From NCBI GenBank assembly GCA_041660005.1, contig JBAZXG010000002.1:24356-88355 (forward strand): DNA of 64,000 nucleotides, in the 5' to 3' direction. Every line of letters begins with the position of its first letter. The stretch's first letter is position 1. The notes below the pieces were generated by a model. It made no database searches. It was not told the origin of the DNA and saw only the letters and a list, made by a program, of their open reading frames with translations. Shown here piece by piece: positions 36,375-53,878 of this stretch. This DNA comes from Patescibacteria group bacterium (GTDB taxonomy: Bacteria > Patescibacteriota > Patescibacteriia > GWA2-46-9). Made by a program: the position numbers and the translations under genes.

Positions 36375-37056
36375 TACTGTTTTTTAGATTAACGGTGTCG
36401 TCGTCAGCAATGACTGCTCCGTCAACCATGATAATACCACGATTTGCGATATCTAAAACACTACGGATATTATGTTCGACGATCAACACCGTTAAACCAA
36501 AGCGCTCTTTAATTTGAGCAATGGTGGCAAACGTATCTTTTACTAATTTCGGTGAAAGACCGAGAGATGGTTCATCGAGAAACAGAACGCGAGGAATATT
36601 AACAAGTGCTCGAGCAATTGCCAACATTTGCTGTTCACCGCCAGAGAGACTGAAGGCATAGCCATTGCTCTTTTTCTTGAGAACGGGAAAGGTTTCGTAC
36701 ATCGCTTCAATATTTTTCTGGATGCGCTCTTCGTCGTGCAGATGATATGCACCGAGTCGCAAGTTTTCAGCAACGGTCAAAAGCCCAAAATTAATTCGTC
36801 CCTGCGGCACAAATCCCAGCCCGTGCTCTGCACGACAATGCGTGGGTGTTGTTGTTATTTCATTACCCAAAAAGGTAACGCTGCCGTTAGTAATGGAAGT
36901 CAACCCATAGAGCGCTTTCAACAATGTTGATTTACCTGCGCCATTCGGACCCATTAAAACAGTGATGCTGCCTTCTTTCAACTCAAAAGAAACATCTTGC
37001 AAAACTGGAATGTCGCCGTAACCAGCACTTAGATTTGATACCGTAAGCATACTCAT
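36337..37056 (-). CDS. livF: branched-chain amino acid ABC transporter ATP-binding protein LivF
   Basis: Walker A GPNGAGKST, signature LSGGEQQM, 239 aa. Confidence 0.85.
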   Translation of the reverse strand: MSMLTVSNLSAGYGDIPVLQDVSFELKEGSITVLMGPNGAGKSTLLKALYGLTSITNGSVTFLGNEITTTPTHCRAEHGLGFVPQGRINFGLLTVAENLRLGAYHLHDEERIQKNIEAMYETFPVLKKKSNGYAFSLSGGEQQMLAIARALVNIPRVLFLDEPSLGLSPKLVKDTFATIAQIKERFGLTVLIVEHNIRSVLDIANRGIIMVDGAVIADDDTVNLKNSNVLRKVFVGAFD

Positions 37057-37802
37057 AGACCGAGATACGCTTCTAAAACGCGCTCATCACGCAACGCAGT
37101 GTCTGGATGACCAGCTACTAAAACACGACCGGCATCCATGACAACGACATGATCGGCTAAGCGTTTTACAAAACCCATGTCGTGCTCCACGATGAGCATC
37201 GTCTCAACGGAATCAGACCCGGAGGTGGGGGACGCTTTCATGGCAAGCAAGAGCGACTCAATTTCCTGCTGGACAACGGCGTTCACGCCAGCAACTGGTT
37301 CATCGAGCAGCAACAGGTGGTGCGGCTTCAATGTGGCCATGGCAAGTTGCAACAACTTGCGCTGACCATAACTCAAATCAGCGACTAGTGTAGTAAGCGG
37401 TTTTTTTAGTTGAAACCGTTCAAGATGCGCGGAAAAAAAATCGTGATCAATTGGTGGATGGCGCCAAACGTTTTTTAGGAGGTTCATATCATCGTTATCT
37501 TTGGCCATGAGCAGATGATCAATAATGGTCAGGTTACGGAAAAGTCGCACCTGTTGGAATGTTCTGCTGATACCGGCATTTGCAACAACGTGCGACGGCT
37601 TATTCGTCAAATTTTGCTCACCCAAAAAAACATGGCCAGTGTCGAGCTTGATGAGACCCGTAATGATATCAAACACCGTCGTTTTACCGGCACCATTGGG
37701 GCCAATAAGCGCCGTTACTGTTCCTGGTTCCACGTGGAACGTACAGCCCGTAACGGCCGCAACGCCGCCAAAATGTTTTGAAACATTCTCAACGCGCAGC
37801 AT
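37053..37802 (-). CDS. livG: branched-chain amino acid ABC transporter ATP-binding protein LivG
   Basis: Walker A GPNGAGKTT, signature LSYGQRK, 249 aa. Confidence 0.85.
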   Translation of the reverse strand: MLRVENVSKHFGGVAAVTGCTFHVEPGTVTALIGPNGAGKTTVFDIITGLIKLDTGHVFLGEQNLTNKPSHVVANAGISRTFQQVRLFRNLTIIDHLLMAKDNDDMNLLKNVWRHPPIDHDFFSAHLERFQLKKPLTTLVADLSYGQRKLLQLAMATLKPHHLLLLDEPVAGVNAVVQQEIESLLLAMKASPTSGSDSVETMLIVEHDMGFVKRLADHVVVMDAGRVLVAGHPDTALRDERVLEAYLGL

Positions 37803-37804
37803 AT

Positions 37805-38671
37805 TTATTCAAGCGTAACAGTACCAAAAAGACCGCGAGGTCTATACATCAGCACTAAGAGAAGAATGACGGCATAGAGTAGCTGGCGAGCTGGCCCCAA
37901 AACCGATGAAGGTAAAGAAACAAAACGCAGTAGCTCAGGAAGCAAAACAAGGAGAACGACCGCACTGACCGTACCGCGCAAAGAAGCTAAGCCACCGACA
38001 ACCACAACAGAAACAATAAAGATGACCTCCGATATGTCATAGCCCGACGGGTCGATATAGCTAATGTAGTGGGCGCCGATACTGCCTGCGATACCTGCCA
38101 AAAAAGCGGCGAGGGCAAGACTCTCCATTTTTAAACGCAAAACATTTTTTCCAAGCATTGCCACACCGCGCTCGTCATCACGAACTGCGCCGAGCAGTAT
38201 GCCGTAACGAGAAGTGGTGAGACGGTGGAGAAAAAAAAGAACGAGTGCTGCCATCACGATAGAGAATGCGAGAAAGTCAAAACGACTTGTGATGACAAAA
38301 CCAAAAACGGCTGGGCGAGGGATGCCAGGAATGCCGAGCGGTCCACGGGTAAGACTGAGCCAATTCAAAAAAATAGAGTGAAGAACGAGGCCAAATCCTA
38401 ATGTGGCAAGCGCAAGGTAATCTCCTTTCGTTTTTTTTGTTATGAGAATAAGCAAAGGGGCAAACAGCGCAGCCAAACAACCAGAGGCAAGGAACGCGAT
38501 CGGGAAAGGGACGCCAGCAAGCGTCAGCAGAGCTGAGGTATACGCACCAATACCAAAAAAAGCTATGTGTCCTAAATTAAGAAGACCGGTAAAACCAAAG
38601 GATAAATTCAGACCAGCAGCCAACACAATATCAACGGCAATAAGAACAAGAAGGTGGTTAAGGTACGGCAT
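37805..38671 (-). CDS. livM: branched-chain amino acid ABC transporter permease LivM
   Basis: 288 aa polytopic permease, operon context. Confidence 0.8.
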   Translation of the reverse strand: MPYLNHLLVLIAVDIVLAAGLNLSFGFTGLLNLGHIAFFGIGAYTSALLTLAGVPFPIAFLASGCLAALFAPLLILITKKTKGDYLALATLGFGLVLHSIFLNWLSLTRGPLGIPGIPRPAVFGFVITSRFDFLAFSIVMAALVLFFLHRLTTSRYGILLGAVRDDERGVAMLGKNVLRLKMESLALAAFLAGIAGSIGAHYISYIDPSGYDISEVIFIVSVVVVGGLASLRGTVSAVVLLVLLPELLRFVSLPSSVLGPARQLLYAVILLLVLMYRPRGLFGTVTLE

Positions 38672-38674
38672 AGT

Positions 38675-39595
38675 TTATTCGCGCACTCCTTTGGTAACGC
38701 CGAGAATCCCAATGGGACGAATAACAAGAAAAATAATAAGAAGACCAAAAACAATGGCATCTTTGTAACCACTCGGTAAGAACCAGGCGCCGAAGTTTTC
38801 CATTAACCCAACGAAATAGCTGCCAAGAATGGCTCCGGGAAGCGACGTTATGCCGCCAATCACAGCGCCACTAAACCCTTTGATGACAAGCTTTGTCGCC
38901 ATAAAAGGCGTAGCATTTTGTTCAAGCACAATAAAAACGGCGGCTATTCCCGCAAGAGCAGAGCCCAAAATGAAACTTAGCTCCTGCACTCGTTCGGTGT
39001 TGATGCCACTGATGCGTGCAAGTTCTGAATGGTCAGCCACTGCACGAATGGTAATGCCGATTTTTGAATAGCGCATCAATACCCAAAATAAAATTAAAAA
39101 AAGCACCGACAAAAGTACAATAGAAATTTGCAATGGTGTTACGGCCGCACCCAACAAGTTAACACCCTTCTCGGTCACAAAATAATTGATTGATTTCACG
39201 TTTGAGCCAAAAGAAAGAATGATACTATTTTCGAAAAAAAACAGAAGCGCCAAACCAGCAATTAACAGAATAGAACTTGAAGCCCCGCGACGTACTAATG
39301 GACGGTACACAACCCGATACGTTGCAAGACCAGCCAAGGTGGCAACGGCAACGGCAAAGATCGCTGCTAGAAAAAGGGGGAGATTAAACTTAGTGAACCC
39401 ACACCATAATGCATAAGCGCCGACCGTCACTATGCTGCCATGTGCAAAATGCATAAAACGGTTGGTGTTGTAGATCAACGAAAAACCCGCTGCCACTAAA
39501 GCGTAAATTGATCCGGCTATGAGCCCGTTAGCTATAATTTGTGCAACATCCATACAGCAAGAAGAGTAGCAACGAAAACCGCCCCGGCGCAACAC
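38675..39595 (-). CDS. livH: branched-chain amino acid ABC transporter permease LivH
   Basis: 306 aa polytopic permease, operon context. Confidence 0.8.
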   Translation of the reverse strand: MLRRGGFRCYSSCCMDVAQIIANGLIAGSIYALVAAGFSLIYNTNRFMHFAHGSIVTVGAYALWCGFTKFNLPLFLAAIFAVAVATLAGLATYRVVYRPLVRRGASSSILLIAGLALLFFFENSIILSFGSNVKSINYFVTEKGVNLLGAAVTPLQISIVLLSVLFLILFWVLMRYSKIGITIRAVADHSELARISGINTERVQELSFILGSALAGIAAVFIVLEQNATPFMATKLVIKGFSGAVIGGITSLPGAILGSYFVGLMENFGAWFLPSGYKDAIVFGLLIIFLVIRPIGILGVTKGVRE

Positions 39596-39628
39596 CGGAG
39601 CGGTCTTGGTTTCGAACTTTACCTTTGG

Positions 39629-40735
39629 TTACTTAGCAGGAACAAAAGCGCCGTTCTTCACAACAAGCACATCGTAGCCACCAGCGACGTCGCCATGTTC
39701 ATCAAAAGAAATGTGTCCCGACGCACCTTCGAAAGATAACTTGTGGAGAGCATCGGCAATCTCTTTTCCGGTTCTGGCGCCACCGAGAATAGCAAGGTTC
39801 ACTGCGCGCATAGCGTCATACCCTTGTGCTGCAAACGGACCTGGGTCAGCACCGTTGTTTTCAGCACGATGACGATCGATAAATCCGCTTGTTCCTGAGC
39901 TCACCGAAGAAACGATTAATCCTTCAGAAACATTACCGGCGGCGGTAACATCTGGACTCTTCAACCCCTCTGAGCCAAACAGCGATACCTTCACCCCAAG
40001 TTCCTTGATCTGTTTCAAAGCAGCAACCGCAGTTTCGGGGTTATTCACAATGAGATAAACAGCGTCTGGATTGGCATCGCGAACTTTTGTTACCTGCGTG
40101 CGGACATCCGTATCGTCTCGACCGAACGTCTCACTGGCAACAACTTCACCGCCAAGTTCTTTAAACTTCGCACTCAGCACGTCATTAAATCCAATACCAT
40201 ACTCTTCATTGCTATAGAGAACGGCTAACTTGCGGAATCCTTTGTTGTAAACAAGCTCAGCACCATACGAACCTTGTAGTGTGTCAGATGGTACCGTACG
40301 AAAAATGTATCTACCAGCTTCGGAAAGTTTTGGGCTTGTTGACGCTGGACTGATGAGTACGGTTTCGTCCTGATTAGCAATTGGCGCAGCAGCGAGCGTG
40401 GCACCGGAACAAACCTCACCAATAATTGCTGAAACGTGATCGACTGAAATCAGTTTTGTAACGGCATTCACGGCGTCTGCACCCTCACACTTGGTATCTT
40501 CATAAATGAGCTCAACCGTGCCAGCATTTACTTCCTTGGCAGCCATTTCGACTCCTCGCTTAATACTTTCACCATAGCTTGCCGCTGCCCCAGACAATGG
40601 ACCAATCCAACCAATTTTCACCGGACCGGTAGCGACGGGCTCTTCAACCCTTTGCTGCTGGTAGATAGTAAAAGCAGACCATGCTAAAACGACGACCACA
40701 ATGACACCAATAAGATACTTCGTTGTATTATTCAT
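39629..40735 (-). CDS. livJ: branched-chain amino acid ABC transporter substrate-binding protein (LivJ/K-like)
   Basis: 368 aa, N-terminal TM/signal anchor, Peripla_BP_6-like. Confidence 0.8.
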   Translation of the reverse strand: MNNTTKYLIGVIVVVVLAWSAFTIYQQQRVEEPVATGPVKIGWIGPLSGAAASYGESIKRGVEMAAKEVNAGTVELIYEDTKCEGADAVNAVTKLISVDHVSAIIGEVCSGATLAAAPIANQDETVLISPASTSPKLSEAGRYIFRTVPSDTLQGSYGAELVYNKGFRKLAVLYSNEEYGIGFNDVLSAKFKELGGEVVASETFGRDDTDVRTQVTKVRDANPDAVYLIVNNPETAVAALKQIKELGVKVSLFGSEGLKSPDVTAAGNVSEGLIVSSVSSGTSGFIDRHRAENNGADPGPFAAQGYDAMRAVNLAILGGARTGKEIADALHKLSFEGASGHISFDEHGDVAGGYDVLVVKNGAFVPAK

Positions 40736-40799
40736 ATAAACAATAAATGGTAAATGACCTATTTATGATAGCAAATGCGGCCCAAAGAACAAAATGGGA

Positions 40800-41210
40800 C
40801 TAATTACTTTTCTCAAAAAAAATTAACACCTCTATTATCCACTCACCTCGCAGCTTACCCTTCATGCTTTGAATTTCTTCGGAGGTAAACCACTGAACAT
40901 CCAATAACTGATCTTCTGGAATATGTAAATCTCCACCGACTATTTTTGCCTCAAAAATATGCTTTGGTGGATCTGTCGCCAGGTTCTGAAAAATATCAAT
41001 TTTTCTAACTAGGGCAACATCAAAGCCCGTTTCCTCCTTCGCTTCTTTGATTGCTGTTTCCTCTATGGTATCTCCGGCGTCAACTCGACCAGCAGGAAAA
41101 TTCCAAAGCCCATATACTTTGGGCTTTTTTTCCTGTACCAACAAGTACTTACCATCCTGTTTAACAACAACGCCCGCAACGACTGATACTTTTTGAATTT
41201 CTTTTTCCAT
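40800..41210 (-). CDS. NUDIX hydrolase
   Basis: Nudix box GRVDAGDTIEETAIKEAKEETG. Confidence 0.75.
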   Translation of the reverse strand: MEKEIQKVSVVAGVVVKQDGKYLLVQEKKPKVYGLWNFPAGRVDAGDTIEETAIKEAKEETGFDVALVRKIDIFQNLATDPPKHIFEAKIVGGDLHIPEDQLLDVQWFTSEEIQSMKGKLRGEWIIEVLIFFEKSN

Positions 41211-41220
41211 AATTTACTTC

Positions 41221-41778
41221 CTATAACTCGCTTACCACCTTCACGACGTCCTCAACCGGTTTACGAATACGCGGACGTTTTTCTTTCTCTTGCACAACTG
41301 GGTCTAAACTTTCTAGTGTGCCTTCGTAGCCAATAGCAACTACGACCACCGGAGCTTCCTCAGGAGACATTCCTAACACGCGGTGTAATACTTCTTCTTT
41401 AAAACCGGCCATTTGATGAGCGCGCAACCCCTGATGCTCGGCTTCAACAACGAGACTCATCACGGACAAAGCGACATCATAGGCGCCATACTCTCTTGAT
41501 TCCGATTTATGGTCGAGCGAAGTGTCGCGCGTCACCGCAAGTATGAGCGGCGCCTTGAGTGCCCACTGGTTTCCAGTATTTAGTGCTTCAGAAAGTTTTT
41601 CCCGTGCGCTGCCAACAACAGCATAATAATGCCAGTCTTGTTTGTTGGAAAAACTTGGCGCCCACTGCGCGGCAGCCCAAAGCGCATCGAGTTTCTCTGG
41701 CTCAATTTTTTGCTCCAAAAATGCACGAACGGATTTGCGCTGATTTAGTTCTTTTAAAATGGGCTTATCGGTGTTCAT
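41221..41778 (-). CDS. nitroreductase family protein
   Basis: 185 aa; RKSVRAF N-terminal motif and fold-typical spacing. Confidence 0.7.
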   Translation of the reverse strand: MNTDKPILKELNQRKSVRAFLEQKIEPEKLDALWAAAQWAPSFSNKQDWHYYAVVGSAREKLSEALNTGNQWALKAPLILAVTRDTSLDHKSESREYGAYDVALSVMSLVVEAEHQGLRAHQMAGFKEEVLHRVLGMSPEEAPVVVVAIGYEGTLESLDPVVQEKEKRPRIRKPVEDVVKVVSEL

Positions 41779-41793
41779 TTGAGGCAGAAATAC

Positions 41794-42084
41794 TTAGTGG
41801 CCGTGTTGCTTTTCTAAGCTTAATAACTTTTCAGTTTTCCTTTTATAAAGATACTGAACGCCATCCTTTTTTTCCAACTCGGTTTGTCCTAAGACTAAAA
41901 CAACTTCGTACAAGCCACTCGCAGTGGCTTGCTCGGCTCTCTTGCACGCATCTTGAAACTGTTCAGGAATAGTATGATGAAACGAATACAGAGATTCCCA
42001 CCCCTCTGATTCTAACTCAGCAATCGTTTTGTCGGTTGTTCGGCAGGGCATGACGTCTAACTGCTTTCTGATTTCGGAGTCCAT
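41794..42084 (-). CDS. hypothetical protein
   Basis: 96 aa ORF. Confidence 0.4.
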   Translation of the reverse strand: MDSEIRKQLDVMPCRTTDKTIAELESEGWESLYSFHHTIPEQFQDACKRAEQATASGLYEVVLVLGQTELEKKDGVQYLYKRKTEKLLSLEKQHGH

Positions 42085-42155
42085 AGTTTTAATGACTAAT
42101 TACAAATTCAATAACGCGATAAATAGCGATTGAGTTGTTTGATATCTACTAAACG

Positions 42156-42221
42156 CTCTCCTCTATAGTATAGGTGTTTCAAACTGTTTTGCCAGATAAT
42201 GATTTATGCACGTGGGTCGGG
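42156..42221. repeat. about 65 bp promoter-bearing direct repeat, copy 1 (copy 2 at 42504..42566; rearranged partial copy at 44196..44240)
   Basis: ctctatagtataggYgtttcaaactgttWtgccagataaYgattta...ggtcgggg about 88% identical. Confidence 0.65.
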
Positions 42222-42527
42222 GCCAGAATTTTTTCGGTAGAGAAAATACTGAATGAGGGTAATACCCCACATGACGATTCCTACTGCAAAAGAAATAAGT
42301 GGAAGATAGGCACCCGTTGCTGTGAAAAAACCAATTTGGGAAGCATAAAACCCTAACGCAATGAATATAGTAAGGAGGGGCTGTCCCGAACGTTTTTCAC
42401 GATAGTTTTTTGTAATTTGTGCGGGTATTCCAACCAATACCAAAGCGAGTGAGAAAATGCTGACCAAAATACTCAAAAGAAAGGTAAGATTCATAGAATA
42501 ATTCTCTCTATAGTATAGGCGTTTCAA
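42204..42527 (-). CDS. small membrane protein (probable true start at 42494, MNLTF...)
   Basis: 3 TM helices; flanked on both sides by the 65 bp direct repeat. Confidence 0.45.
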   Translation of the reverse strand: MKRLYYRENYSMNLTFLLSILVSIFSLALVLVGIPAQITKNYREKRSGQPLLTIFIALGFYASQIGFFTATGAYLPLISFAVGIVMWGITLIQYFLYRKNSGPDPRA

Positions 42528-42566
42528 ACTGTTATGCCAGATAACGATTTAGGTATGTTGGTCGGG
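42504..42566. repeat. 65 bp promoter-bearing direct repeat, copy 2
   Basis: see 42156..42221. Confidence 0.65.
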
Positions 42567-42628
42567 GGTTGGCGATTCAAATTTTAGTTTATTTGACTAC
42601 GCACGACTCAGCATTACGGACATCACTT

Positions 42629-43378
42629 CTAATCTTCGACTTTCTTCGTCGAGAGCACAAATCCACTATCTTCACGAGTTTGATACCCTAGTTTTTCGGT
42701 ACTCGCTACTAATCGGCCGAGGTCTGTAGGATCTTCGGGTACCAACCGAGAGAATATCAGCGAACAAGCATTATCTTTGGCAACGCGCTCGGCGATCAAT
42801 AGTAACTGTTTGCCTGCTCCTTGTCCTTGCAAAGGAGGCGCCACGTATCTATCGGCGATATACAAATACTTTTTTCTTGACCCGTCTTTCAAGACCAAGT
42901 TGAAAATTTTGAGATTTATGAAACAGTGATGATTCTCACTGCCAATATTCACGAGGTGTGCGATGGACTTTTCATAATCAATAGTTGTAGCACTTATGGC
43001 GTTATCTATAGATATAGCATCGGAATAGTTACTAATTTCATTGGCTCTTGCTTGAAGAGCCAGATTCTTACCACTAAGACGTAATCTGTATTCTTCTTGA
43101 ATAAACGGTTTTGTTTTACCGCTATCGCCAATCAATCGCCGATCTCCTAGTCCTCTAAGTGCTTCCTGCAGCAATTGACGATATCTATTTTTTAGTGGAC
43201 CTGGCTCAACCTCTGCTACTTTGGCTTCGAGAAGTTCAATTAATTTTGTTCCTTCACCCTCGTTTAAATTTTCGAGTACCGACCTTTCTGGTCTCTCCGG
43301 ATTTTCTAAATTTTCGTCAAACCATACTTCTGGCGACGACCATTCTCTTTCAAGTCTATTTCTTTCCATTTCAGACAT
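42629..43378 (-). CDS. GNAT family N-acetyltransferase with N-terminal extension of unknown function
   Basis: C-terminal LQGQGAGKQLL (Q/RxxGxG/A acetyl-CoA motif). Confidence 0.55.
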   Translation of the reverse strand: MSEMERNRLEREWSSPEVWFDENLENPERPERSVLENLNEGEGTKLIELLEAKVAEVEPGPLKNRYRQLLQEALRGLGDRRLIGDSGKTKPFIQEEYRLRLSGKNLALQARANEISNYSDAISIDNAISATTIDYEKSIAHLVNIGSENHHCFINLKIFNLVLKDGSRKKYLYIADRYVAPPLQGQGAGKQLLLIAERVAKDNACSLIFSRLVPEDPTDLGRLVASTEKLGYQTREDSGFVLSTKKVED

Positions 43379-43515
43379 ACATCTTGAATGTTTTCCTTTA
43401 AACTATATTTTCATGAGGGCAAATGGGGCGCTCGATAAAAAACATGGAATTCCTTTTAGGAACTAACTGACTTTTCGGTGGTCACGACTACGTCTTGACC
43501 TATTTTATTGATGTC

Positions 43516-43702
43516 GGAGAGGGAGGGATGCTTCGCTTGTGGAACCCGTCGCTACGCTCTTTCAAACCCAGTTGCTTGGCGCGACACTTACTGATCTTTG
43601 ATTTTGCTGTTGATGTCAGTTTGAATAATTCCGCCACGGGAAACTCCCGTTTCCCAGCCTGTCCGCCTTCGGCGGAACCCCTTCCCGGGGTTCGAATCCC
43701 TA
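43516..43702 (-). repeat. family-1 element (copy A) beginning with a 14 nt copy of the tRNA-Ser 3' end (43516..43529); marks the left border of the island
   Basis: ggagagggagggat matches 58195..58208 of tRNA-Ser; body shares cgctctttcaaaccca..gtttgaataattccgccRcgggaaactcccgtttccc..ggttcgaatccct with the Ala and Leu loci; contains a 50 nt insertion in the P1 loop. Confidence 0.7.
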
Positions 43703-43926
43703 CCAACTATTCTAAGTGGTCTGTGCATTACCCTACAAGAGAGGAGGATTCGCCTACAAGTCGCCTCGCCTTCCGGCTTGGCGCTCGCAGGCCGCCCCTC
43801 GCGGTCTTGCTCGCCCAATTGCGTCGCAAGACATCGCTGCGGTCTTCGAATCCCTCACGCGAGCAAAGCAGTTTGCTCGCTCCTCTCCTCGGCGTTTTTA
43901 TCTTTGATATTTTAAGGAAACTCCTC

Positions 43927-44150
43927 GGAGAGGGAGGGATTTCCGCGTTCCTCGTCGCCAGCATAGCGACTCGTCGCTCTGTCCGGGGCAGCGCTGAAAG
44001 CTGCGCCCGCTCACTTTCATCGGCGCTCGCTTCATTCGCTTTGTCTTCCGCCAAAACTCATGGCTCGCTGCTGCCCGTTCGAATCCCTCTCCATCTTACC
44101 AAAAATGAGCTGTGCCGCCCACGCACACGTGGGCACCACAGCTCATTCGG
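43927..44150 (-). repeat. family-2 element (copy B) beginning with a second 14 nt copy of the tRNA-Ser 3' end (43927..43940), followed by a long hairpin
   Basis: body shares ctctgtccggggcagcgctg...catcggcg...ctgctgcccgttcgaatccct with the element next to tRNA-Lys; 11 bp stem hairpin aatgagctgtg/cacagctcatt at about 44103..44149. Confidence 0.7.
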
Positions 44151-44412
44151 TGTGTCGCGGTCTAGAACCGCCCCATCGCTAGTATTGTAAGGGGTTTCAA
44201 GGGGTTTGGCGATTCAGCGTTTTTAACCGTCTCGGTCGGGGTCTGCTTGAGAAGAGCGAAGCTGAATGCCAAAAAATGCCAAATATTTTCACCTGCCATA
44301 TTATATACAAATAGCGTACTCCTGCTCAGGATACGCCTATTACTGTTATTAAATGCGGATTAGCACCCTCCTCTCTCATTGAGCGCACCACAGACTTTTG
44401 GCATTTGACGAA

Positions 44413-44892
44413 TCAGATCACTCGGCACTCCATTAGGTGACGACAGAGCGCTTCTTTGCTCACTAAGTATTTTTTTGCCAAAAATTCAAGATCGGGATTT
44501 CGTGAGAAGTCTCCTCTAATAAACGCGAGCGGTATCAGGAGCTCGGCTCCAAATTGATAGGCTTCCCGTTCTGCATTACTGTCAGGGTTTTGCCCACAGA
44601 CGTGCCCCATAAGGAAGTGTCCAATCTCGTGAGCAATCGTGAGTCGCCGCCGTACCCAGGCCGGCGTTGGGTTGAAGCCAATCGTCGGCTGACCATCGAT
44701 CATGAGAAGTGCACCATCAACGGTTTCAAACTCAACGCGCATGATATCAAGGCCACGCTGTGCCTTGAGGTGATTAATGACCTTCCACAGCGAGACCGGA
44801 ATTTCATTCACCCCGGAATCTTTAAAGAGCTTTCTGGCGAGTTTCCTCGCCCCACCTACATTCGGACCAAGCTGTACGTCATCATTTTCCAC
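44413..44892 (-). CDS. ImmA/IrrE family metallo-endopeptidase
   Basis: HEIGHFLMGH (HEXXH) motif, 159 aa, downstream of and overlapping XRE gene. Confidence 0.75.
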   Translation of the reverse strand: MENDDVQLGPNVGGARKLARKLFKDSGVNEIPVSLWKVINHLKAQRGLDIMRVEFETVDGALLMIDGQPTIGFNPTPAWVRRRLTIAHEIGHFLMGHVCGQNPDSNAEREAYQFGAELLIPLAFIRGDFSRNPDLEFLAKKYLVSKEALCRHLMECRVI

Positions 44893-45211
44893 GGCGTTTT
44901 TTAGCTAGCTCGATGAAGCGTAGGAGAGCTTCCTTGTCTTTGGCCGTCAGGTCCTTATCAGCCCTGAGAGCAACTTTGATATCCACGGGGCGACTCTCTT
45001 GCCCAAGGAAGTAGGCAATGTCTCGATGCAACGCTTTAGCAGCTTTGTGTAGGTCTTCGGATCTGAGTTTGCGTTCTCCCGCCTCAATAAGCGAAATGGC
45101 TGTAGCTGACTCATAGTCCAAGGCCTTTGCTAATTGCGCCTGAGACAGTCCGGCCGCTTCACGCGCGGCCCGCAAACGAGCCCCAATTTGAACATTCACC
45201 TCATCTTTCAT
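44882..45211 (-). CDS. XRE family HTH transcriptional regulator (ImmR-like)
   Basis: LRAAREAAGLSQAQLAKAL HTH. Confidence 0.75.
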   Translation of the reverse strand: MKDEVNVQIGARLRAAREAAGLSQAQLAKALDYESATAISLIEAGERKLRSEDLHKAAKALHRDIAYFLGQESRPVDIKVALRADKDLTAKDKEALLRFIELAKKRRGK

Positions 45212-45328
45212 ATTGATATTCTAAATCAATCAGAATGATTTGACAAGGAATTTGCCACTTTGCTAAACTAGATATATCATTATGTTTATATGGATTAGAC
45301 AGCCCTTACCCTACCTAACAACTCCCTT

Positions 45329-46591
45329 ATGAAAATTGAACATGTCAACGTAGGCGATCTTAAACCCTCAGTCTACAATCCCAGAAAGTGGGATGAGAAA
45401 ATTATCGCGGATATGACCGAGAGCATCAAGCGGTTCGGTCTGTGCGATCCCCTGATTGTGAATGGTGCCCCCGACAGAAAGAATATCGTAATTGGTGGCC
45501 ATCTGCGCCTGAAGGTTGCGACCAGCCTCGGATTCACCGAGGTGCCAGTCGTTTATCTGAACATTCCAGAGATTGAGCGTGAGCAGGAACTCAACCTTCG
45601 TCTCAATAAAAATCTCGGTAATTGGGACGACGAGCTTCTAAAGGCGTTCGACATGAACCTTCTGCTTGATGTCGGATTCACCCCCGACGAACTGAACTTC
45701 CACTTCGATGACGTCCTCGACGTGAGCGACGACGGATTCAACGTCAAGGAGGAACTTGCCAAAATCACAACGCCGGAGAGTAGGCCGGGCGACCTCTACG
45801 AACTTGGACAACATCGACTGCTCTGTGGCGACGCGCTCGATCTCAATAATATCACAAAGCTAATGGGCAACGAGAAAGCGCATATGATCTTCTGCGATCC
45901 GCCGTACAACATCGGTCTTGACTACAGGAATGGCATCGGCACAGCTGGAAAGTACACCACGGACAAGCTCGTAAACGATAATAAAAGCATAAAAGATTAC
46001 GAGCAGTTTATCGAACAATCCTTACAAAACGCCTTGGCCGCAAGTCGTGACGACGTCCATGTCTTCTACTGGTGCGATGAAAAAAATGTCTGGCTTTTGC
46101 AACAACTCTACCAGAAGCACGGCATCACGAACCGGCGGCTGTGCCTCTGGGTGAAAAACAATTTCGATCCTACACCGCAGGTTGCCTTTAACAAGGTTAT
46201 TGAACCATGCGTCTATGGCACCCGCGGCAAACCCGCACTTAACTCTAGCATTAAGAACCTGTCGGAAATCATGAACCAAGATGTGAACTCTATTGGTATG
46301 TACGACGACCTCATGAGCATCGTCCAGCTCTGGCTCGTGAAGCGCGACAACACCGCCGACTATGAGCACCCCACTCAAAAGCCAATCACTCTAAATGAGA
46401 AGCCGATGAAGCGCTGCAGTGCACCTGGAGAAATCGTACTCGACTTCTTCGGCGGAAGCGGATCGACACTCATTGCTGCCGAGCAGTTGAAACGCCGCGC
46501 TTTCCTCGTTGAGCTCGATCCCATATTTTGCGATCTCATTATTCGACGCTATGAACACTTCACCGGCAACCACGCCAAAAGAATCCAATAA
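45329..46591 (+). CDS. ParB-like nuclease domain fused to beta-class DNA methyltransferase (N6-adenine or N4-cytosine)
   Basis: N-terminal ParB/Srx fold (IVIGGHLRLKVA); motif IV DPPYNIG then motif I FFGGSGSTLIAAEQLKRRAFLVE at C-terminus (IV before I = beta class). Confidence 0.8.
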   Translation: MKIEHVNVGDLKPSVYNPRKWDEKIIADMTESIKRFGLCDPLIVNGAPDRKNIVIGGHLRLKVATSLGFTEVPVVYLNIPEIEREQELNLRLNKNLGNWDDELLKAFDMNLLLDVGFTPDELNFHFDDVLDVSDDGFNVKEELAKITTPESRPGDLYELGQHRLLCGDALDLNNITKLMGNEKAHMIFCDPPYNIGLDYRNGIGTAGKYTTDKLVNDNKSIKDYEQFIEQSLQNALAASRDDVHVFYWCDEKNVWLLQQLYQKHGITNRRLCLWVKNNFDPTPQVAFNKVIEPCVYGTRGKPALNSSIKNLSEIMNQDVNSIGMYDDLMSIVQLWLVKRDNTADYEHPTQKPITLNEKPMKRCSAPGEIVLDFFGGSGSTLIAAEQLKRRAFLVELDPIFCDLIIRRYEHFTGNHAKRIQ

Positions 46592-47333
46592 TCCCTCCGA
46601 CGGCCTATGGCGGCTCGGCAGTCACCGCCTTCTTCGCGGAGACGCCACAAAGAAGGCGGATGTGGACAGGCTCATCAACGGCGACAAAGTGACGCTGCTT
46701 TTAACCGATCCTCCGTACGGTGTTGGGTACGTTGAAGGCAAGCAAGAATTCTTGAAAACAATTCACCGAGGAAACAAATCAAAAAAATTTACTGCCATCC
46801 AAGGAGACGGTGTGGGGGATGACTACTACGACTTCTCACGAAAATGGCTGGAAACGGTTCGGCCTCACTTCAAGGACAAAAATGCATTTTATATTTTTAA
46901 CGGAGACGCGAAGCTCAGAGAGTTCCTGAACGCCCTGCACGACACGGGATACACAAAGTCGGCACTCCTCATCTGGCTGAAGAACCATCTCGTCGTCGGC
47001 CGAAAAGATTTTCACCCGCAGCACGAGCTCATCGCCTACGGCTGGTACGGCAGACACGCGTTTTTCGGCAACAAGGATAGGACGACACTCTTCTACCCCA
47101 AACCGAGCAGCAGCAAGCTCCACCCCACCATGAAGCCACCCGCACTTCTGCGACGCCTCATCTATCACAGCACCAAGCCGGGAGATATCGTCCTGGATTT
47201 ATTTGGTGGTTCCGGATCGACTTTGATCGCCTGCGAGCAGCTAGGCAGACGATGCTTCATGATGGAATGCGACACCTCGTACTGCGCCACCATCGTCGAA
47301 CGATGGCAGAAACTCACCAAGGGAAAAGCATAA
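46509..47333 (+). CDS. beta-class DNA methyltransferase (second, stand-alone; start probably internal Met)
   Basis: motif IV LLTDPPYGVGY, motif I LDLFGGSGSTLIACEQLGRRCFMMEC; overlaps upstream MTase in another frame. Confidence 0.8.
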   Translation: MSSIPYFAISLFDAMNTSPATTPKESNNPSDGLWRLGSHRLLRGDATKKADVDRLINGDKVTLLLTDPPYGVGYVEGKQEFLKTIHRGNKSKKFTAIQGDGVGDDYYDFSRKWLETVRPHFKDKNAFYIFNGDAKLREFLNALHDTGYTKSALLIWLKNHLVVGRKDFHPQHELIAYGWYGRHAFFGNKDRTTLFYPKPSSSKLHPTMKPPALLRRLIYHSTKPGDIVLDLFGGSGSTLIACEQLGRRCFMMECDTSYCATIVERWQKLTKGKA

Positions 47334-47749
47334 CCCTGTCCTCATGTATCACGTCTATGGAAAGTACGGAGGCCGAACATTCGAAAACCATATCAGTGTA
47401 CAAGAAACAAGAATTCGAGGCCTACGTGCTGTGGCGATCGATGCCGTCAATCCTGCGTGGCCAGCCGAGGCACGTCATCGAAAAACTTGGCATCGACGAC
47501 GAGATTGCTATGTCGCTCCTCGACATCAAGAACCAGACCGAGTTCGCCAAGCGGTATGGCATCAAGGATCTCGGGACCCTGACAGACTGGAACAAACGAA
47601 TCGATGAGATGGGCGGACTCATGCGCTACATCAACGCCTGGGCCAAGCGCCTGACTCCGAACGTTATCTCAGCCCTGTACCGCGAGGCCACGAAGAGCGG
47701 ACGGGCCGCCGAGGTCAAAGCCTGGATGGAAATTATTGAAGGGATGTAA
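47252..47749 (+). CDS. putative HTH DNA-binding protein (terminase-small-subunit/Nu1-like helix-turn-helix); probable start at 47360
   Basis: EFAKRYGIKDLGTLTDWNKR resembles wHTH of phage small terminase/Nu1; weak. Confidence 0.3.
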   Translation: MLHDGMRHLVLRHHRRTMAETHQGKSITLSSCITSMESTEAEHSKTISVYKKQEFEAYVLWRSMPSILRGQPRHVIEKLGIDDEIAMSLLDIKNQTEFAKRYGIKDLGTLTDWNKRIDEMGGLMRYINAWAKRLTPNVISALYREATKSGRAAEVKAWMEIIEGM

Positions 47750-47754
47750 ACAAT

Positions 47755-47973
47755 ATGGAGATTGAAGAAAAAAATCTACGGAAAACACTCAGCATAGAAG
47801 AAGCGGCGGGCATTTTGTCTGACACGCTCCGCGATGTGGCCGAGCGCAAGACTACAGTGCGGCGGGCGCTGGTAATGTCGCGCCTGGCGTTGGCACTCTC
47901 CAGAGTACTCGAAATTGCCGACCTCAAAGCTCGCGTCGAGTTTTTAGAGCAAATGTTAAAGAAACGACGCTAA
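47755..47973 (+). CDS. small coiled-coil hypothetical protein
   Basis: 72 aa ORF tightly packed between neighbours. Confidence 0.3.
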   Translation: MEIEEKNLRKTLSIEEAAGILSDTLRDVAERKTTVRRALVMSRLALALSRVLEIADLKARVEFLEQMLKKRR

Positions 47974-47974
47974 T

Positions 47975-49816
47975 ATGGCCAACCTCTCCACCGCTCTGCG
48001 GACCGGGAACCTGACCGCACGCGAACGGTTCCTGCTCCTCATCCAAAACGACATCCAGCGCATGAAGACGGGAAAAGATATCCTGACGACGGCCGACAAA
48101 GCCGCGCTCGAGAATTGGCAAGCTAAAAATAACGTCGAAGCGTCTGAGTGGAACCGCCTGAACGAGGGGTGGAAACACACTGGACGCATGGACATTGAAG
48201 TTGAGTTCGCCTACCAGGAAGCGAACGCCGCACATCTCGCCAAGCTGCCAATCATCATTGAGCTCCTCACCTACCGGGCTGATCGAGAGATGAGCCGCTG
48301 TATCAATGTCCTGAAGCGATTGAAAAAAGTAAACCCAAAAGAAGCGAGCGTGATCATCGCCAAGCAGAAAGCCGCCAAACTCAAAGAAGGCATAGACGTC
48401 GAGTACGCGGTTTACCGGTTGGCCTTCGAGCGCCTCACTCCGGCAGAACAACAGCAAATGAAAGAGCTCTACGGCGACGTTGAAACTGACCATCAGTACC
48501 TCGACCAAGAGGAGGTTATCGCCAATCTGTACGGCAACCAAACCGAGCTCACCCCCGAGGCAAAAGATAAGCTCGCCACGCTGGTAGCCGAACGGAGCTA
48601 TAACGCATTTGCCAAAGAACATCAACTCTTCCATTACTTCGCCTGCATCCCGCTTGCTGAGGTGGCCCGATACTTCATCGCGCTAAAAAATATCATCCTG
48701 CCAAGCGAATCATCGCCTGCAGACGGAAAGGAAAAGGACCCATTCGCCGATCTCAATCAGTGCAACGAGTTGGCTGAAGCATTACAAACGTACGCGACGA
48801 CGCACCACACCACGGTCGAGAAGCTGCTCACGGAAGCGTGCCGCGTCTGGCTCGATGACGGCCTTCTTGAAACTTACACGCCGCTCGTCACGAGCAACAA
48901 TGCCGCGCTTTTTGAGCGGTGGCTCGCGGCCAAAATTGAAGCCAAGACGGTTATAACTCAACACGTTAGTGCTGGTGAACTCATGCTGCGCCATCGTACG
49001 GAGGAAGAAACAAGAAAGGAAAAGCTCTTGAGCAAAGACAGCTACGACCGTGAGTTAGCCACGGCACAAGCAGTACTTGAGGAGATCGGACGGGAGGCGA
49101 CAATCAAAGGAGAGCTTGATGAAAAATCAGCCTTCGAGACGTTCGCCGATCAGGTCATTACTGGCGAGAGTCTCTACGCATTCCCGGGCGACTACGAATT
49201 TGTGAAAAGCTTCAAGGAGCGAGCCGACATATACGACCCCAACCTCGGCATTGTCTACGCGGACGATGATCCAAACCACGCAGGCGAGCACTTGGACCAG
49301 GAACTCCTCATCTGCGACATAACCGACAGCGGCGACGCGAGCGTCTTTAGCCGCTACGGCATGGCGATATCGCTACTCGCAAACATCTTCGATAAAAAAA
49401 TGTTTTTTGAGGAGGTTGCCGAGGACGGAAAACTATTCCTTCACTTCAAGGATTCGCAGATTGAGGAGGCGTTCCGGGCAAGACAACAAAACCTCGTCGA
49501 TGGCTACGCCAAACTCCTCGCCTATCAAGCGGTGTTTAGCAAAGTGGCCGCCATCTACGAGGCCGACCTTGCCTACCACGTCACGGAACGGCTGACGGGG
49601 TTACGCGAAAATATTACCCAGCACAACGAGGCAGTTCAGCAAGCGACGAACCTCGGCGAACGGCTGCACCGAAAAGCAAAGTACGACTTCTTCCGGAGAC
49701 GTGACCGGCTATACTTGAAAGAGGATCTTGTTATAAATATCGATACGATCAAGCCTGACCAAGCAACCATGAAAGAGCACGAAGCGAAGTTGAAAAGGAT
49801 TTTTGGGAACTTCTAA
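47975..49816 (+). CDS. large hypothetical alpha-helical protein (island cargo)
   Basis: 613 aa, no P-loop or known motif recognised. Confidence 0.5.
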   Translation: MANLSTALRTGNLTARERFLLLIQNDIQRMKTGKDILTTADKAALENWQAKNNVEASEWNRLNEGWKHTGRMDIEVEFAYQEANAAHLAKLPIIIELLTYRADREMSRCINVLKRLKKVNPKEASVIIAKQKAAKLKEGIDVEYAVYRLAFERLTPAEQQQMKELYGDVETDHQYLDQEEVIANLYGNQTELTPEAKDKLATLVAERSYNAFAKEHQLFHYFACIPLAEVARYFIALKNIILPSESSPADGKEKDPFADLNQCNELAEALQTYATTHHTTVEKLLTEACRVWLDDGLLETYTPLVTSNNAALFERWLAAKIEAKTVITQHVSAGELMLRHRTEEETRKEKLLSKDSYDRELATAQAVLEEIGREATIKGELDEKSAFETFADQVITGESLYAFPGDYEFVKSFKERADIYDPNLGIVYADDDPNHAGEHLDQELLICDITDSGDASVFSRYGMAISLLANIFDKKMFFEEVAEDGKLFLHFKDSQIEEAFRARQQNLVDGYAKLLAYQAVFSKVAAIYEADLAYHVTERLTGLRENITQHNEAVQQATNLGERLHRKAKYDFFRRRDRLYLKEDLVINIDTIKPDQATMKEHEAKLKRIFGNF

Positions 49817-50029
49817 CTCATTAGTCTACCCGGACCACCTCGAGACCGGACCCAAATTGGTCAACGCCGATAAGGTTTTTGAAGCCTATTTATGATTATT
49901 GAAACAACGTACCCTAAGCACCCTGAAATATAATCTCCCAAACATTAATACCCACATAAGGTGTACGGAGAAAATAGACCACAGAAACGAAGTGTATTCC
50001 GTCCTCCACTTTCCATATTTCAGAACTTT

Positions 50030-51116
<1,087 letters not shown>

Positions 51117-51122
<6 letters not shown>

Positions 51123-51485
51123 ACATCCCCTATAACTAAAGTGCAGCAAGAAATACCGATTGTGCAAAAACTCTACGATCTCTACAAAACCTTCTACGGC
51201 TTCGCCGTGCTTTTTCCGAAGAAAGATAAGTACACACTCGGCGCAAAGTGTGAACAGTACATAATCAACACACTGGAATTGATACTGGCAGCAAGTGCAG
51301 TTACTCCGGCAGAGAAGCTTGGTCTACTACGTCAAGCAAACGTAAAGTTCGATACGCTTAAGGTATTTCTTCGATTATCCCGTGAGATTGGAGCAATCGA
51401 CGCGAAAAAATATCTTGTCCTCCAGAGAGAAATTCAAGAAATTGGTCGCATGCTTGGCGGCTGGCAACGGTCGCTCAGTGCATAA
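51117..51485 (+). CDS. avd: DGR accessory variability determinant Avd (four-helix-bundle protein)
   Basis: 122 aa; KLYDLYKTFYGFAVLFPKKDKYTLG...EIGRMLGGWQRS resembles Bordetella phage bAvd (..EVGRILGSWIAR) and the four-helix-bundle family; start ATG overlaps RT start in palindrome ATGCAT. Confidence 0.75.
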
Positions 51486-51544
51486 TCAACATCGGGGACC
51501 TGTAAGAACAGAATCCCCGAGCCAACTGCTATCGTAGACACAAT

Positions 51545-51663
51545 CCGAGGAAGGACACTCCACCAGAGTAGTTGTCGTTCGCATTCGCAAGATTCGTCCT
51601 GTTGTCGAACTCGAGCTTATCGTCGTTCGGGTTCAGGTAGAGCGAGTACTCAGCGGACTGCCA
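51545..51663 (-). repeat. DGR template repeat (TR)
   Basis: 119 nt about 89% identical to 52085..52203; 12 of 13 differences are at TR adenines (coding strand). Confidence 0.85.
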
Positions 51664-51965
51664 GAATATACCATTCCCCACCGATATGCACCGGCCCTCG
51701 GCCAGAGTTTCCTCTAGCTCCGAGCCTGAATTTTATTCGGTTCATTAGAGAACCCTAGAAAATGGTACGTAGTGTCTACGTGCTCTGCATACGCTCTGGC
51801 AATCAAGTATTTCCTTACCTGACAACTACCAGACTCTGATACATTGATGAGCATGAAGGATTTCGGCGGCCGTGATTAGATGAAGCCAACCACGGTACAT
51901 GAGCCTAATCTCAAAAGCAGTGTAGCATCAGTTCTCGTTTGTTGAAAAATTTTGAAAAAGGAAAA

Positions 51966-53867: not shown

Positions 53868-53878
53868 AAAAGAGTGTG

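Follow-up and report, generated by a model that had tools for sequence, protein, structure and literature searches.

Tandem non-coding units at a tRNA-Ser gene of a Patescibacteria bacterium and their relatives at other gene ends

Units at tRNA-Ser(CGA) and at the other tRNA genes

We analysed a stretch of 64,000 nucleotides (the window) from a Patescibacteria group bacterium (assembly GCA_041660005.1, contig JBAZXG010000002.1, positions 24,356 to 88,355), and we describe here the region at 43515-44150, which is separated by a 14 kb island from the gene for tRNA-Ser(CGA) and consists of three units: a family-1 unit, which is the outermost, a unique middle unit and a family-2 unit. All five tRNA genes of the window lie on the minus strand, and units are described throughout on the tRNA-sense strand, which is the minus strand of the window. 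The target gene, tRNA-Ser(CGA), occupies 58190-58279 (minus). The sequence CGGAGAGGGAGGGAT, the complement of the 15 nt at the 3' end of this tRNA, occurs exactly three times, at 43515-43529, at 43926-43940 and, in the gene itself, at 58193-58207; shuffled sequence yielded 0.05 matches at two or fewer mismatches. A preliminary description of this region had placed a 14-nt copy before each of two elements, and both copies are present, with a length of 15 nt. The two displaced copies are 411 nt apart, a distance that takes in two units, and the inner one lies 14,267 nt from the copy in the gene, a distance that takes in one unit and the island. The cassettes behind tRNA-Ser are of ~120-190 bases each and encode no protein. 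Read on the minus strand, each has an arm antisense to the T-loop and 3' end of the tRNA, followed by a structured core and then by a displaced tRNA 3' end.

Taken in the order of the coordinates, the family-1 unit begins with its displaced tRNA-Ser 3' end at 43515-43529 (minus), an exact 15-mer made up of the acceptor 3' strand, the T-stem 3' strand and the first T-loop bases. Its core, at 43530-43686 (minus), contains the hairpin H1 (GGGAAAC GGGA GUUUCCC, 43638-43655) and the hairpin H2, with arms at 43561-43569 and 43617-43625; the loop of H2 holds an insertion of ~47 nt, which identifies this unit as a decayed copy. The antisense arm at 43687-43704 (minus) reads GGGGTTCGAATCCCTACC on the plus strand, and its minus strand is the complement of the tRNA-Ser T-arm. 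An unstranded spacer (43705-43738) separates this arm from the displaced copy of the middle unit, a degenerate tRNA-Ser 3' end reading AATCCTCCTCTC on the minus strand at 43739-43750, which pairs with the arm of that unit in the predicted fold. The middle unit continues with a core of ~90 nt (43751-43843, minus), an antisense arm reading GTGAGGGATTCGAAG on the minus strand (43844-43858) and an unstranded spacer (43859-43925) with the hairpin GCGAGCAAAGCAGTTTGCTCGC at 43859-43880. Its predicted fold has -60.9 kcal/mol on the minus strand (z = -4.1), compared with -49.1 kcal/mol on the plus strand (z = -2.1). The family-2 unit has an exact 15-mer as its displaced tRNA-Ser 3' end (43926-43940, minus) and a core at 43941-44076 (minus) with a long-range helix (GGGCAG.../...CUGCCCC), a conserved GGACA junction and covarying internal hairpins. 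Its arm at 44077-44095 (minus) reads GTTCGAATCCCTCTCCATC on the plus strand, and the minus strand of the arm complements the tRNA-Ser from T-loop to acceptor, with a 4-nt deletion. The spacer element of this unit is a terminator hairpin at 44103-44147 (minus, with the T-run on that strand), the counterpart of the terminators found between tRNA and unit at tRNA-Lys, tRNA-Leu and tRNA-Ala.

The preliminary description had recognized two elements arranged head-to-tail. Both are there, one of each family, but the number of units is three. The further T-arm-like motif (GGTCTTCGAATCCCTC, 43841-43856) and the hairpin (43859-43880) that had been reported between the two are also present; the motif, however, is not another fragment of the tRNA but an antisense copy of the target, such as stands at the far end of each unit, and together with the hairpin and the degenerate tail at 43739-43750 it reveals the third unit, which had been missed. 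Nor does the tRNA copy lead each unit, as had been supposed: on the minus strand it comes after the unit and represents the displaced old end.

The proposal that the two elements belong to different families is borne out by the other tRNA genes of the window. Searches with nhmmer profiles gave three family-1 copies (E 1e-11 to 1e-19) and two family-2 copies (E 1e-38 to 1e-40) in the window and no further ones. In comparisons with the Lys, Ala and Leu loci, family-1 was found also at tRNA-Leu and tRNA-Ala, and family-2 also at tRNA-Lys, where the unit is 78% identical to that at tRNA-Ser. Each of these three loci, all on the minus strand, has a single cassette: family-2 at tRNA-Lys (3941-4159; displaced copy 3941-3959, then core, arm 4096-4111 and terminator 4119-4158), family-1 at tRNA-Leu (12798-12973; displaced copy 12798-12814, core, arm 12913-12930, terminator 12938-12970) and family-1 at tRNA-Ala (31263-31459; displaced copy 31263-31281, core, arm 31397-31411, terminator 31420-31459). 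The tRNA-sense order is the tRNA gene, a short spacer (usually a bidirectional terminator hairpin), the arm, the structured core and an exact copy of the tRNA 3' end. The arms are antisense to the T-loop, the T-stem 3' strand and part of the acceptor 3' strand. The exact tail copy, which starts in the T-loop and extends as far as the discriminator or CCA, measures 19 nt for Lys, 17 for Leu, 19 for Ala and 15 for Ser, and the two copies of the tRNA end are 219 nt apart for Lys, 176 for Leu and 197 for Ala. Arm and tail copy are predicted to pair, closing the core. The tRNA-Arg of the window carries no unit.

The flank of tRNA-Lys at 3500-3945 is a second graveyard of units. Degenerate tails of tRNA-Lys lie there near 3741-3756 and 3791-3809, together with an arm-like TCGATTCCCT at 3881-3893. 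A partial family-2 end with terminator, at 3507-3566, is 93% identical to 4098-4157.

Two further observations were made at tRNA-Ser. An open reading frame (ORF) of 231 codons (43495-44190, plus strand) crosses all three units of the array; we take it to be a by-product of unit composition, which gene callers may annotate as a protein. In addition, the 5' end of tRNA-Ser is duplicated, with TATGGAGAGGTGGCCGAGTGG at 58262-58282 and at 58376-58396; two hairpins and a promoter-like pair, TTGACC-N17-TATGGA, lie in the 93 nt that separate these copies. A similar duplication of a tRNA-Phe 5' end flanks an insert of ~72 nt at locus L075, one of the loci discussed below. These two cases (58262-58396 and L075) suggest a second kind of cassette, one that replaces tRNA starts.

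Recurrence, target specificity and core structure

The family-1 core was turned into a degenerate pattern, with which we scanned contigs of one genome per species. Such scans are exact, so that the true abundance is higher than the counts given here and the sample is biased towards conserved cores. The family-1 pattern matched 93 stretches, and nearly every named record was from the Patescibacteria, or candidate phyla radiation (CPR); the hosts comprise Saccharibacteria, Parcubacteria, Uhrbacteria, Azambacteria, Jorgensenbacteria, Liptonbacteria and Komeilibacteria, several genomes having multiple matches. The family-2 pattern matched nine metagenome contigs, and the loci have the same layout as those of family-1. 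This layout, a tRNA gene of any type followed by an optional terminator, an arm, a conserved core and an exact 12-25 nt copy of the tail, recurs at about 100 Patescibacteria loci (cited by L numbers). For family-1, a tRNA gene lies 20-270 nt from the unit in 49 of 95 matches, with ~17 tRNA specificities represented; the relative orientation of tRNA and unit is identical in 48 of the 49, and an exact copy, at least 10 nt long, of the end of that tRNA lies beyond the core in 37. We estimate the chance of a 12-mer copy at ~3e-4 per locus. When all targets are taken together, a second copy of at least 13 nt was found for 52 elements, with a median spacing between copies of 176 nt (interquartile range 156-197). 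The mini-elements are of 105-350 bp and lack ORFs. Among the relatives of the array, single occupancy is the norm, the copies lying no more than 350 nt apart at 49 of 52 loci, but the tandem arrangement occurs as well, and L104 has five family-2 units in a row.

The exact repeat begins at T-loop positions 57-60 in 25 of 36 cases and at G53 in three of 36. At two family-2 loci (L099 and L103) a proper terminator follows the displaced copy and none follows the copy attached to the tRNA, which indicates that the displaced copy is the original tRNA end. At L028, L069 and L075, the unit abuts the tRNA without a terminator.

Protein genes, too, carry family-1 units at their 5' ends, oriented opposite to the gene: EF-G (L023, L093), LepA (L082), rplK, encoding L11 (L042, L054, L095), and a ComM-like gene (L048). 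The insertion in LepA is at the AHID G-motif, the same as in EF-G. Approximately the first 20 codons are present twice at these loci, with similarity stopping exactly at the start codon, and the repeat is exact over 13-51 nt within a duplicated stretch of ~50-65 nt. The displaced copy in L054 comes after nusG and the native spacer of that gene, whereas the gene-joined copy has only a 17-nt foreign leader; the two are identical for 21 nt beside the core and then show 13 differences, counted by eye, all of which are synonymous. Most of the differences between the L093 copies are likewise synonymous and are spread over the whole repeat. At these two loci, therefore, one copy came with the element from another lineage and was not made by duplication. 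The copies at L023, L048 and L095, being identical over 45-51 nt, are uninformative on this point. The tRNA cassettes fit the same logic by analogy, with the element as the likely source of the tRNA tail and terminator. A target-site duplication arising by fill-in was rejected, because the differences in L054 and L093 are mostly or only synonymous and the displaced copy adjoins the native flank. The frame that starts at the displaced start codon is open through the unit for 53-63 codons at all five loci at which both starts were found automatically and at L054, examined by hand (the set being L023, L048, L082, L093, L095 and L054), and it ends anywhere from 24 nt ahead of the rescue start to 8 nt inside it. 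Translational coupling would fit this arrangement, which could also be a by-product of the C-rich antisense strand.

The arm, of 10-23 nt, is antisense to the intact target across the insertion point. Its mean complementarity score against its own intact tRNA is 11.2, compared with 7.9 against the sequence that now follows the core, that is, the context of the displaced copy (p = 1.8e-5), and 7.95 against other tRNAs (p = 3e-6). The arms at protein genes span the junction too, covering a few bases of the gene body and 9-13 bases of the repeat. Since the arm fits the intact target across the junction, the stem of arm and tail imitates the target duplex, except that its centre, near the junction, is imperfect. 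No conserved motif stands beside the targets when the tRNA and protein-gene loci are compared. Because one core family serves ~17 tRNA types and several protein genes, the target appears, from these sequence comparisons, to be written in the element as the complementary arm.

The near-invariant stretch of the family-1 core consists of GGGAAGGGGUC, the H1 hairpin (GGGGAAAC GGGA GUUUCCCC) and GUGGCGGAA, and is followed by H2. This second hairpin occurs in 43 distinct versions with Watson-Crick pairs at 314 of 344 positions, and its distal four pairs vary freely (CUAA/UUAG, UUGA/UCAA, UGCA/UGCA and UGGG/CCCA). Family-2 has the conserved long-range helix GGGCAG.../...CUGCCCC and covarying inner hairpins. 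On the unit-sense strand of family-1, G-T mismatches outnumber A-C mismatches by 10 to 3 in H2 and by 16 to 6 in the closing stem (26 to 9 in total); loops of the GNNG or GNRA type occur on this strand only, the GGGA loop of H1 being invariant. The predicted fold is also better on this strand in 28 of 30 family-1 units, although G-richness may account for part of the effect. The covarying helices, the mismatch bias, the loops and the fold bias together show that the functional form is a single strand of tRNA-sense polarity, either RNA or DNA. The core subtype is independent of the target, as tRNA-Thr(GGU) has three subtypes in three genomes, and identical cores stand at different tRNAs of one genome (Val and Leu in L075, Glu and Arg in L089). 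It follows that cores move between targets and that the arm and the rescue copy are renewed each time.

No protein could be linked to the units. When 757 ORFs from the loci were clustered all-against-all, no family turned up in more than six of the loci, and Pfam and PHROGs scans found no recombinase or reverse transcriptase in the window outside the island, where the genes are of the housekeeping kind (gyrA, RNase III, NusA, NusB, RNase HII, a PilB-like ATPase, H+-pyrophosphatase, ABC transporters and pilin paralogues); recombinase and reverse transcriptase genes occur only inside the island. Paralogues with a lamin-tail domain, those of pilin and the distribution of the two families all point to a CPR bacterium. 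The scans of the window gave no tyrosine recombinase, none recurs in the loci, and the 104 fetched loci, each of up to 8 kb (one of 14.7 kb), yielded no integrase-bearing parent. The lack of a linked protein leads us to regard the units as non-autonomous. Only the tRNAs and the LOOT RNA of the island reach the gathering threshold of Rfam 15 in the window, and Rfam E-value scans of the array and of typical family-1 and family-2 units gave chance-level matches only. Pattern scans of viral contigs produced one chance match, and a typical unit gave no BLAST match in phage or plasmid collections. A literature search in an incomplete library found no description of these units; the only item near the topic was TIGR-Tas, which is array-based and unrelated in layout.

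Several other identities were considered and rejected. A tRNA-like or tmRNA-like molecule on the plus strand does not agree with the negative ARAGORN and Rfam results, and no T-stem forms. The arm is not a retrovirus-like tRNA primer-binding site, as it usually stops short of the tRNA 3' end and the protein-gene targets would be left unexplained, and it is not the T-stem 5' strand of an old tRNA body, as it reaches into the complement of the acceptor strand (L098, L084, L046). A guide of the TnpB/IscB type is contradicted by the lack of a common adjacent motif and of any such gene nearby, and an archaeal-type bulge-helix-bulge intron by the two splice-site contexts being identical rather than complementary.

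Some variants stand apart from the common layout. In L097 (1387-5834) the ~3 kb bracketed by two family-2 units hold genes for a Fic/DOC-HTH protein and for an AEP-TOTE primase domain, with a gene for a reverse transcriptase immediately beyond; the bracketed segment may be a cargo-loaded cassette. A multi-copy version of the family-1 core is found in metagenome-assembled genomes of Saccharibacteria (L003, L008, L011, L016, L017, L019, L030, L032, L035, L055, L076 and L088). It is of ~250 nt, has at least eight copies in one assembly and no target repeat, and comprises a fixed 5' hairpin module (CTCCCCGCAGAAT...) and a 3' hairpin ending in TTTTTATT; its flanks frequently have TTAAT at their end. 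This version resembles a dispersed small-RNA gene or a miniature element of the IS200/IS605 type. Finally, variants of family-1 with 'GGTTCTAG' may be the scars of nested units.

The island and other repeats of the window

The island lies between the family-2 terminator and tRNA-Ser. It extends over 44239-58131 if it is delimited by the 14-nt direct repeat AACCGTCTCGGTCG, which contains the palindrome ACCG-TCT-CGGT and occurs at 44225-44238 and 58132-58145; we estimate the chance of such a repeat at ~2e-4 over ~56,000 position pairs. Alternatively, the island fills exactly the interval between the tRNA end and the terminator (44151-58189; GCCA / AATGAGC...), and joining the tRNA end to the terminator would then restore a perfect A-tract/T-tract terminator, as in the other mini-elements. 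On either set of limits, we judge the island to have inserted separately, within the spacer that belongs to the family-2 cassette, the youngest of the three. The preliminary description had placed the units at the left junction of this island; they are not its attachment sites but self-contained elements of ~180 bp, mostly found without any island.

The island carries an XRE regulator with an M78 peptidase, a ParB-methylase, a second methylase, a diversity-generating retroelement, the LOOT RNA, a large serine recombinase and an AAA_21 ATPase. Related large serine recombinases occur near family-1 units elsewhere. One, with 71% identity to that of the window, lies in L005 (1202-2530) beyond the displaced tRNA-Ser(GCU) tail of a mini-element and next to an SMC-like ATPase, and another, with 44% identity, lies in L084 (3923-5629), where its ORF runs straight into the unit. 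The retroelement (50030-52983) has a reverse transcriptase split into 50030-50431 and 50517-51167 (minus), a bAvd-like gene at 51024-51485 (plus) that overlaps the reverse transcriptase ORF, and a template/variable repeat pair of 126 nt with 88% identity (51538-51663 and 52078-52203). The second repeat lies at the 3' end of an ORF of 300 amino acids (52081-52983), which is probably the variable target gene. The LOOT RNA is full-length (Rfam RF03000, 90.7 bits) and lies at 54910-55029 (minus), between the serine recombinase gene and an ORF of 338 amino acids (53879-54895), directly upstream of the latter.

At 44165-44240, inside or at the edge of the island, the sequence (to which we assign no strand) contains AACCGTCTCGGTCG and aligns with a repeat of ~65 nt, two copies of which (42156-42225 and 42504-42580) each lie upstream of a small ORF, the two ORFs being paralogues on the minus strand. 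The region had been reported to end in a rearranged fragment of this repeat; the relationship holds, though only as that of a diverged third copy, and an alignment of four sequences (the copies at 42156 and 42504, 44165-44240 and 58100-58192) has a mean column identity of 60%. The third copy holds a promoter-like pair on the minus strand, TCGCCA-17-TACAAT, from 44212 to 44184.

Other repeats were seen near the tRNA genes of the window. A repeat of 84 nt (93% identity) is found at 4397-4480, directly after tRNA-Arg, and at 31129-31212, after the displaced tRNA-Ala tail. It is introduced by GCCTTCACTA at both sites, with a conserved loop, ATAGTTTYAACGG, and forms two hairpins with the covarying stems GCCAGCC/GGCTGGC and GTCCGCC/GGCGGAC; it may be a further element or an RNA motif tied to tRNA flanks. 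A repeat of 90 nt (92% identity; GTGAAAAAATTATGAGTACGTC...) lies at 4293-4382, between tRNA-Arg and tRNA-Lys, and at 12497-12536 and 12670-12759, downstream of the tRNA-Leu cassette. At 18316-21447 there are seven tandem paralogous genes for proteins of ~135-155 amino acids, with a conserved 27-nt segment every 410-475 nt; four of the seven were scanned, and all four match the type IV secretion pilin-like family PF18895.

Possible mechanism, alternatives and known systems

Successive insertion at one tRNA, as had been proposed in the preliminary description, is the best reading of the array, and similar arrays exist at tRNA-Lys and in other organisms. On balance we lean, by no great measure, towards the view that 43515-44150 is a tandem array of three non-coding cassettes, each of which replaced the end of the gene, by way of a single-strand, homology-guided insertion step at tRNA-Ser(CGA). 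Their architecture suggests that the cassettes are non-autonomous mobile elements, and that the target is set by the way in which arm, rescue copy and gene end match one another, through complementarity or homology, rather than by a protein that reads a fixed sequence. Integron cassettes, the folded CTX attP and the base-paired guides of IS200/IS605 elements may serve as working analogies. A complete cassette would comprise the replacement gene end, a spacer that in most cases is a terminator, the 10-23 nt arm and ~100-150 nt of structured core, and its excised or copied form would have the core and the rescue tail contiguous. As a single strand, it would fold so that the arm pairs with the target-like tail, giving a hairpin that mimics the target duplex and has an imperfect centre. 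A factor acting in trans could then exchange strands at the base of the stem; this might be a recombinase, or else annealing at a replication fork or following the uptake of DNA. Resolution would leave, in order, the gene body, rescue end, spacer, arm, core and old end, with the tRNA remaining intact, and each new insertion would shift the earlier cassettes outward to form a stack with the oldest outermost. The position of the family-1 unit at tRNA-Ser, which is both outermost and damaged by the 47-nt insertion in H2, agrees with this order.

Several points weigh against this view. No empty and occupied allele pair, no excised form and no enzyme were seen, and the core of the middle unit has no second copy in the window or the fetched loci. 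The start of the repeat ranges from G53 to tRNA position 60, so there is no single crossover point, and we cannot explain how a cassette gains a new arm and a new rescue copy at a different gene. The limits of the island are ambiguous, and a functional link between its family of serine recombinases and the units may exist, given the neighbours in L005 and L084, though the many different targets make it unlikely. Other features of the cores point to RNA rather than DNA, namely the strongly conserved sequence with its purine-rich joints and GNRA-like loops, the preponderance of G-U over A-C mismatches (26 versus 9) and the terminator that the Saccharibacteria version has of its own.

These last features lend themselves to the main rival explanation, which we consider unlikely overall but serious: the unit would be transcribed in the tRNA sense, and its 5' antisense arm and 3' sense tail would programme a recombinase, nuclease or reverse transcriptase in trans, much as in bridge RNA, omega RNA or a co-transcribed retroelement RNA. 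The invariant GGGA loop on H1, the restriction of GNNG/GNRA loops to the unit-sense strand, the better fold of that strand in the family-1 units (28/30) and in the middle unit, and the hairpin and U-run that end the Saccharibacteria version on the same strand would all be expected of such an RNA; the units that abut their tRNA without a terminator (L028, L069, L075) imply co-transcription, and reverse transcriptase genes lie near family-2 units in the island of the window and in L097. However, no promoter is visible, a terminator immediately precedes most mini-elements, host transcription at protein genes runs antisense to the unit-sense strand, and the predicted folds tie up the arm by pairing it with the tail. 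There is also no protein encoded in cis or recurring nearby, no motif next to the targets that resembles a target-adjacent or protospacer-adjacent motif, and no Rfam match to an omega RNA or any other type, and the fold bias may merely reflect G-richness. That the units have no mobility or function of their own, being the attL-side remains of integrase-driven islands or prophages, seems improbable. Direct repeats of a tRNA 3' end that stop in the T-loop are a classic signature of integrases, and the family-2 unit at tRNA-Ser does mark the far end of a recombinase-bearing 14 kb island, as may also be the case in L084 and L097. The island recombinase, though, is of the serine type and the island has a candidate repeat of its own; moreover, debris would hardly have tight sizes (at most 350 bp in 49 of 52 elements, with a median of 176) free of gene fragments, one conserved, covarying core at ~17 tRNA types and protein genes, target-specific arms, or identical cores at different tRNAs within a genome.

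It is quite improbable that the units belong to the host as a conserved small RNA gene or a processing signal after CPR tRNAs, with tRNA-like ends kept by selection, for example by RNase P or RNase Z. Their very wide distribution in the CPR, their high sequence conservation and the manner in which the arm-tail stem reproduces the acceptor/T-stem helix at tRNA targets would suit a host function, but the unit also stands at the 5' ends of protein genes, in opposite orientation and with displaced pseudo-starts, and one copy of the gene end in L054 and L093 is apparently foreign. In addition, tandem decaying arrays exist, only some tRNAs of a genome carry a unit (tRNA-Arg of the window has none) and the core subtype is independent of the target. 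A chimeric join or a mis-resolved repeat in the assembly, which had been named as the result that would undo the tandem arrangement, has a very small probability. Two short-read contigs from run SRR18595301 reproduce 36613-43648 with one mismatch and 44043-50565 with none, so that both outer junctions of the array were independently assembled; these contigs end inside the family-1 and family-2 units, which shows that the interior is difficult to assemble, and the interior itself (43649-44042) comes from the source assembly alone, a further point against our reading. The three units nevertheless differ from each other, leaving no long exact repeat to collapse, and comparable arrays are present in unrelated assemblies.

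Compared with known systems, the cassettes inserted by single-strand exchange, as we propose, would behave most like tRNA-targeting integrative elements and their integrase-less derivatives. In common with tRNA-gene islands, prophages and cis-mobilizable elements (CIMEs), they insert in the 3' part of tRNA genes with the crossover region in the T-loop, supply a new 3' end and leave the old one as the far direct repeat, accumulate in tandem at one site and use other conserved gene ends. The direct repeat of the tRNA 3' end, stopping in the T-loop, is present at both ends of the element, and, as in CIMEs, the mini-elements are flanked by repeats of the attL/attR type and lack integrase and excisionase genes. 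They differ from tRNA-gene islands in being of ~105-350 bp and without genes, in using one core for many targets, in having their own antisense arm and in the absence of a linked integrase: no integrase or recombinase gene is present in the mini-elements, the serine recombinase being confined to the separate 14 kb island. Integron attC sites and the folded CTX attP resemble the cassettes in being small, promoter-less and often gene-less, with an imperfect inverted repeat that folds single-stranded into a mimic of the site with an unpaired centre; the outer half-site comes from the target after insertion, and arrays form by repeated insertion. The R boxes of attC have the form RYYYAAC ... GTTRRRY, with crossover at G/TT. 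The stem of tRNA-targeted cassettes, which ends in ...GAAC / GTTC..., is close to these boxes, but the EF-G and LepA copies have no GTT at the junction and the stem sequence follows the target. Furthermore, no integron integrase, attI or Xer site is present, and the central part is conserved in the cassettes but not in attC.

IS200/IS605 elements and palindrome-associated transposable elements share the single-strand logic, the lack of a target-site duplication and the recognition of ends or target by pairing to a short internal guide, and the Saccharibacteria version, with its similar hairpins near both ends, sits after TTAAT-like flanks. The known guides, however, are of 4-5 nt for a fixed tetra- or pentanucleotide target, whereas the arm of the cassettes is of 10-23 nt and differs with each target; the cassette brings a rescue copy, and no TnpA or TnpB gene was seen in the 64-kb window or the ~8 kb locus slices. 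The bridge (seek) RNAs of IS110/IS1111 are likewise structured, element-encoded non-coding RNAs, of ~150-200 nt, that match both target strands and are programmable. Bridge RNAs are encoded beside a DEDD recombinase gene and have short bipartite guides in two internal loops, with a 2-nt core shared with the target. The cassettes have no adjacent DEDD recombinase and are predicted to fold into a single long arm-tail stem rather than internal guide loops. They differ from the OMEGA RNAs of TnpB/IscB in having no tnpB or iscB gene nearby, no common flanking motif and no Rfam match. The palindromic elements of Rickettsia and the Correia elements of Neisseria are also non-coding, structured, multi-copy sequences of 100-200 bp in small genomes that allow the host gene to survive, but they have fixed ends, no arm matched to the target and no replacement of the gene end. 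Nor do the units resemble miniature inverted-repeat transposable elements (MITEs), since the inverted arm differs with each target, which it matches, the repeat varies in length from 12 to 51 nt, and the copies in L054 and L093 differ mostly or only at synonymous sites, as they would not after a duplication. The units thus stand apart from MITEs, integron cassettes, IS200/IS605 derivatives, bridge and omega RNAs and every Rfam family.

The two core families are apparently undescribed, widespread and missing from Rfam. At a modest reading, the units explain breaks in CPR assemblies at tRNA genes, offer Rfam two families of structured elements, and account for pseudo gene starts and tRNA tails that annotation misreads, the ORF at 43495-44190 being an example. 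A bolder proposal, about which we are more doubtful than confident, is that they form a new class of programmable, protein-less mobile cassettes, in which arm and core, as an RNA guide or as folded single-stranded DNA, direct insertion at any gene end and bring the replacement for that end, with a conserved CPR factor acting in trans. The targeting rule would then be testable by swapping the arm, and the enzyme or pathway in trans might be of use for programmable insertion. Patescibacteria have genomes among the smallest of any bacteria. If the proposal is true, they would have been colonized by a site-specific element of ~180 bp that has no genes and is harmless to the essential gene it enters, genes such as those for tRNAs, EF-G, LepA and L11 surviving the insertion by means of the rescue end.

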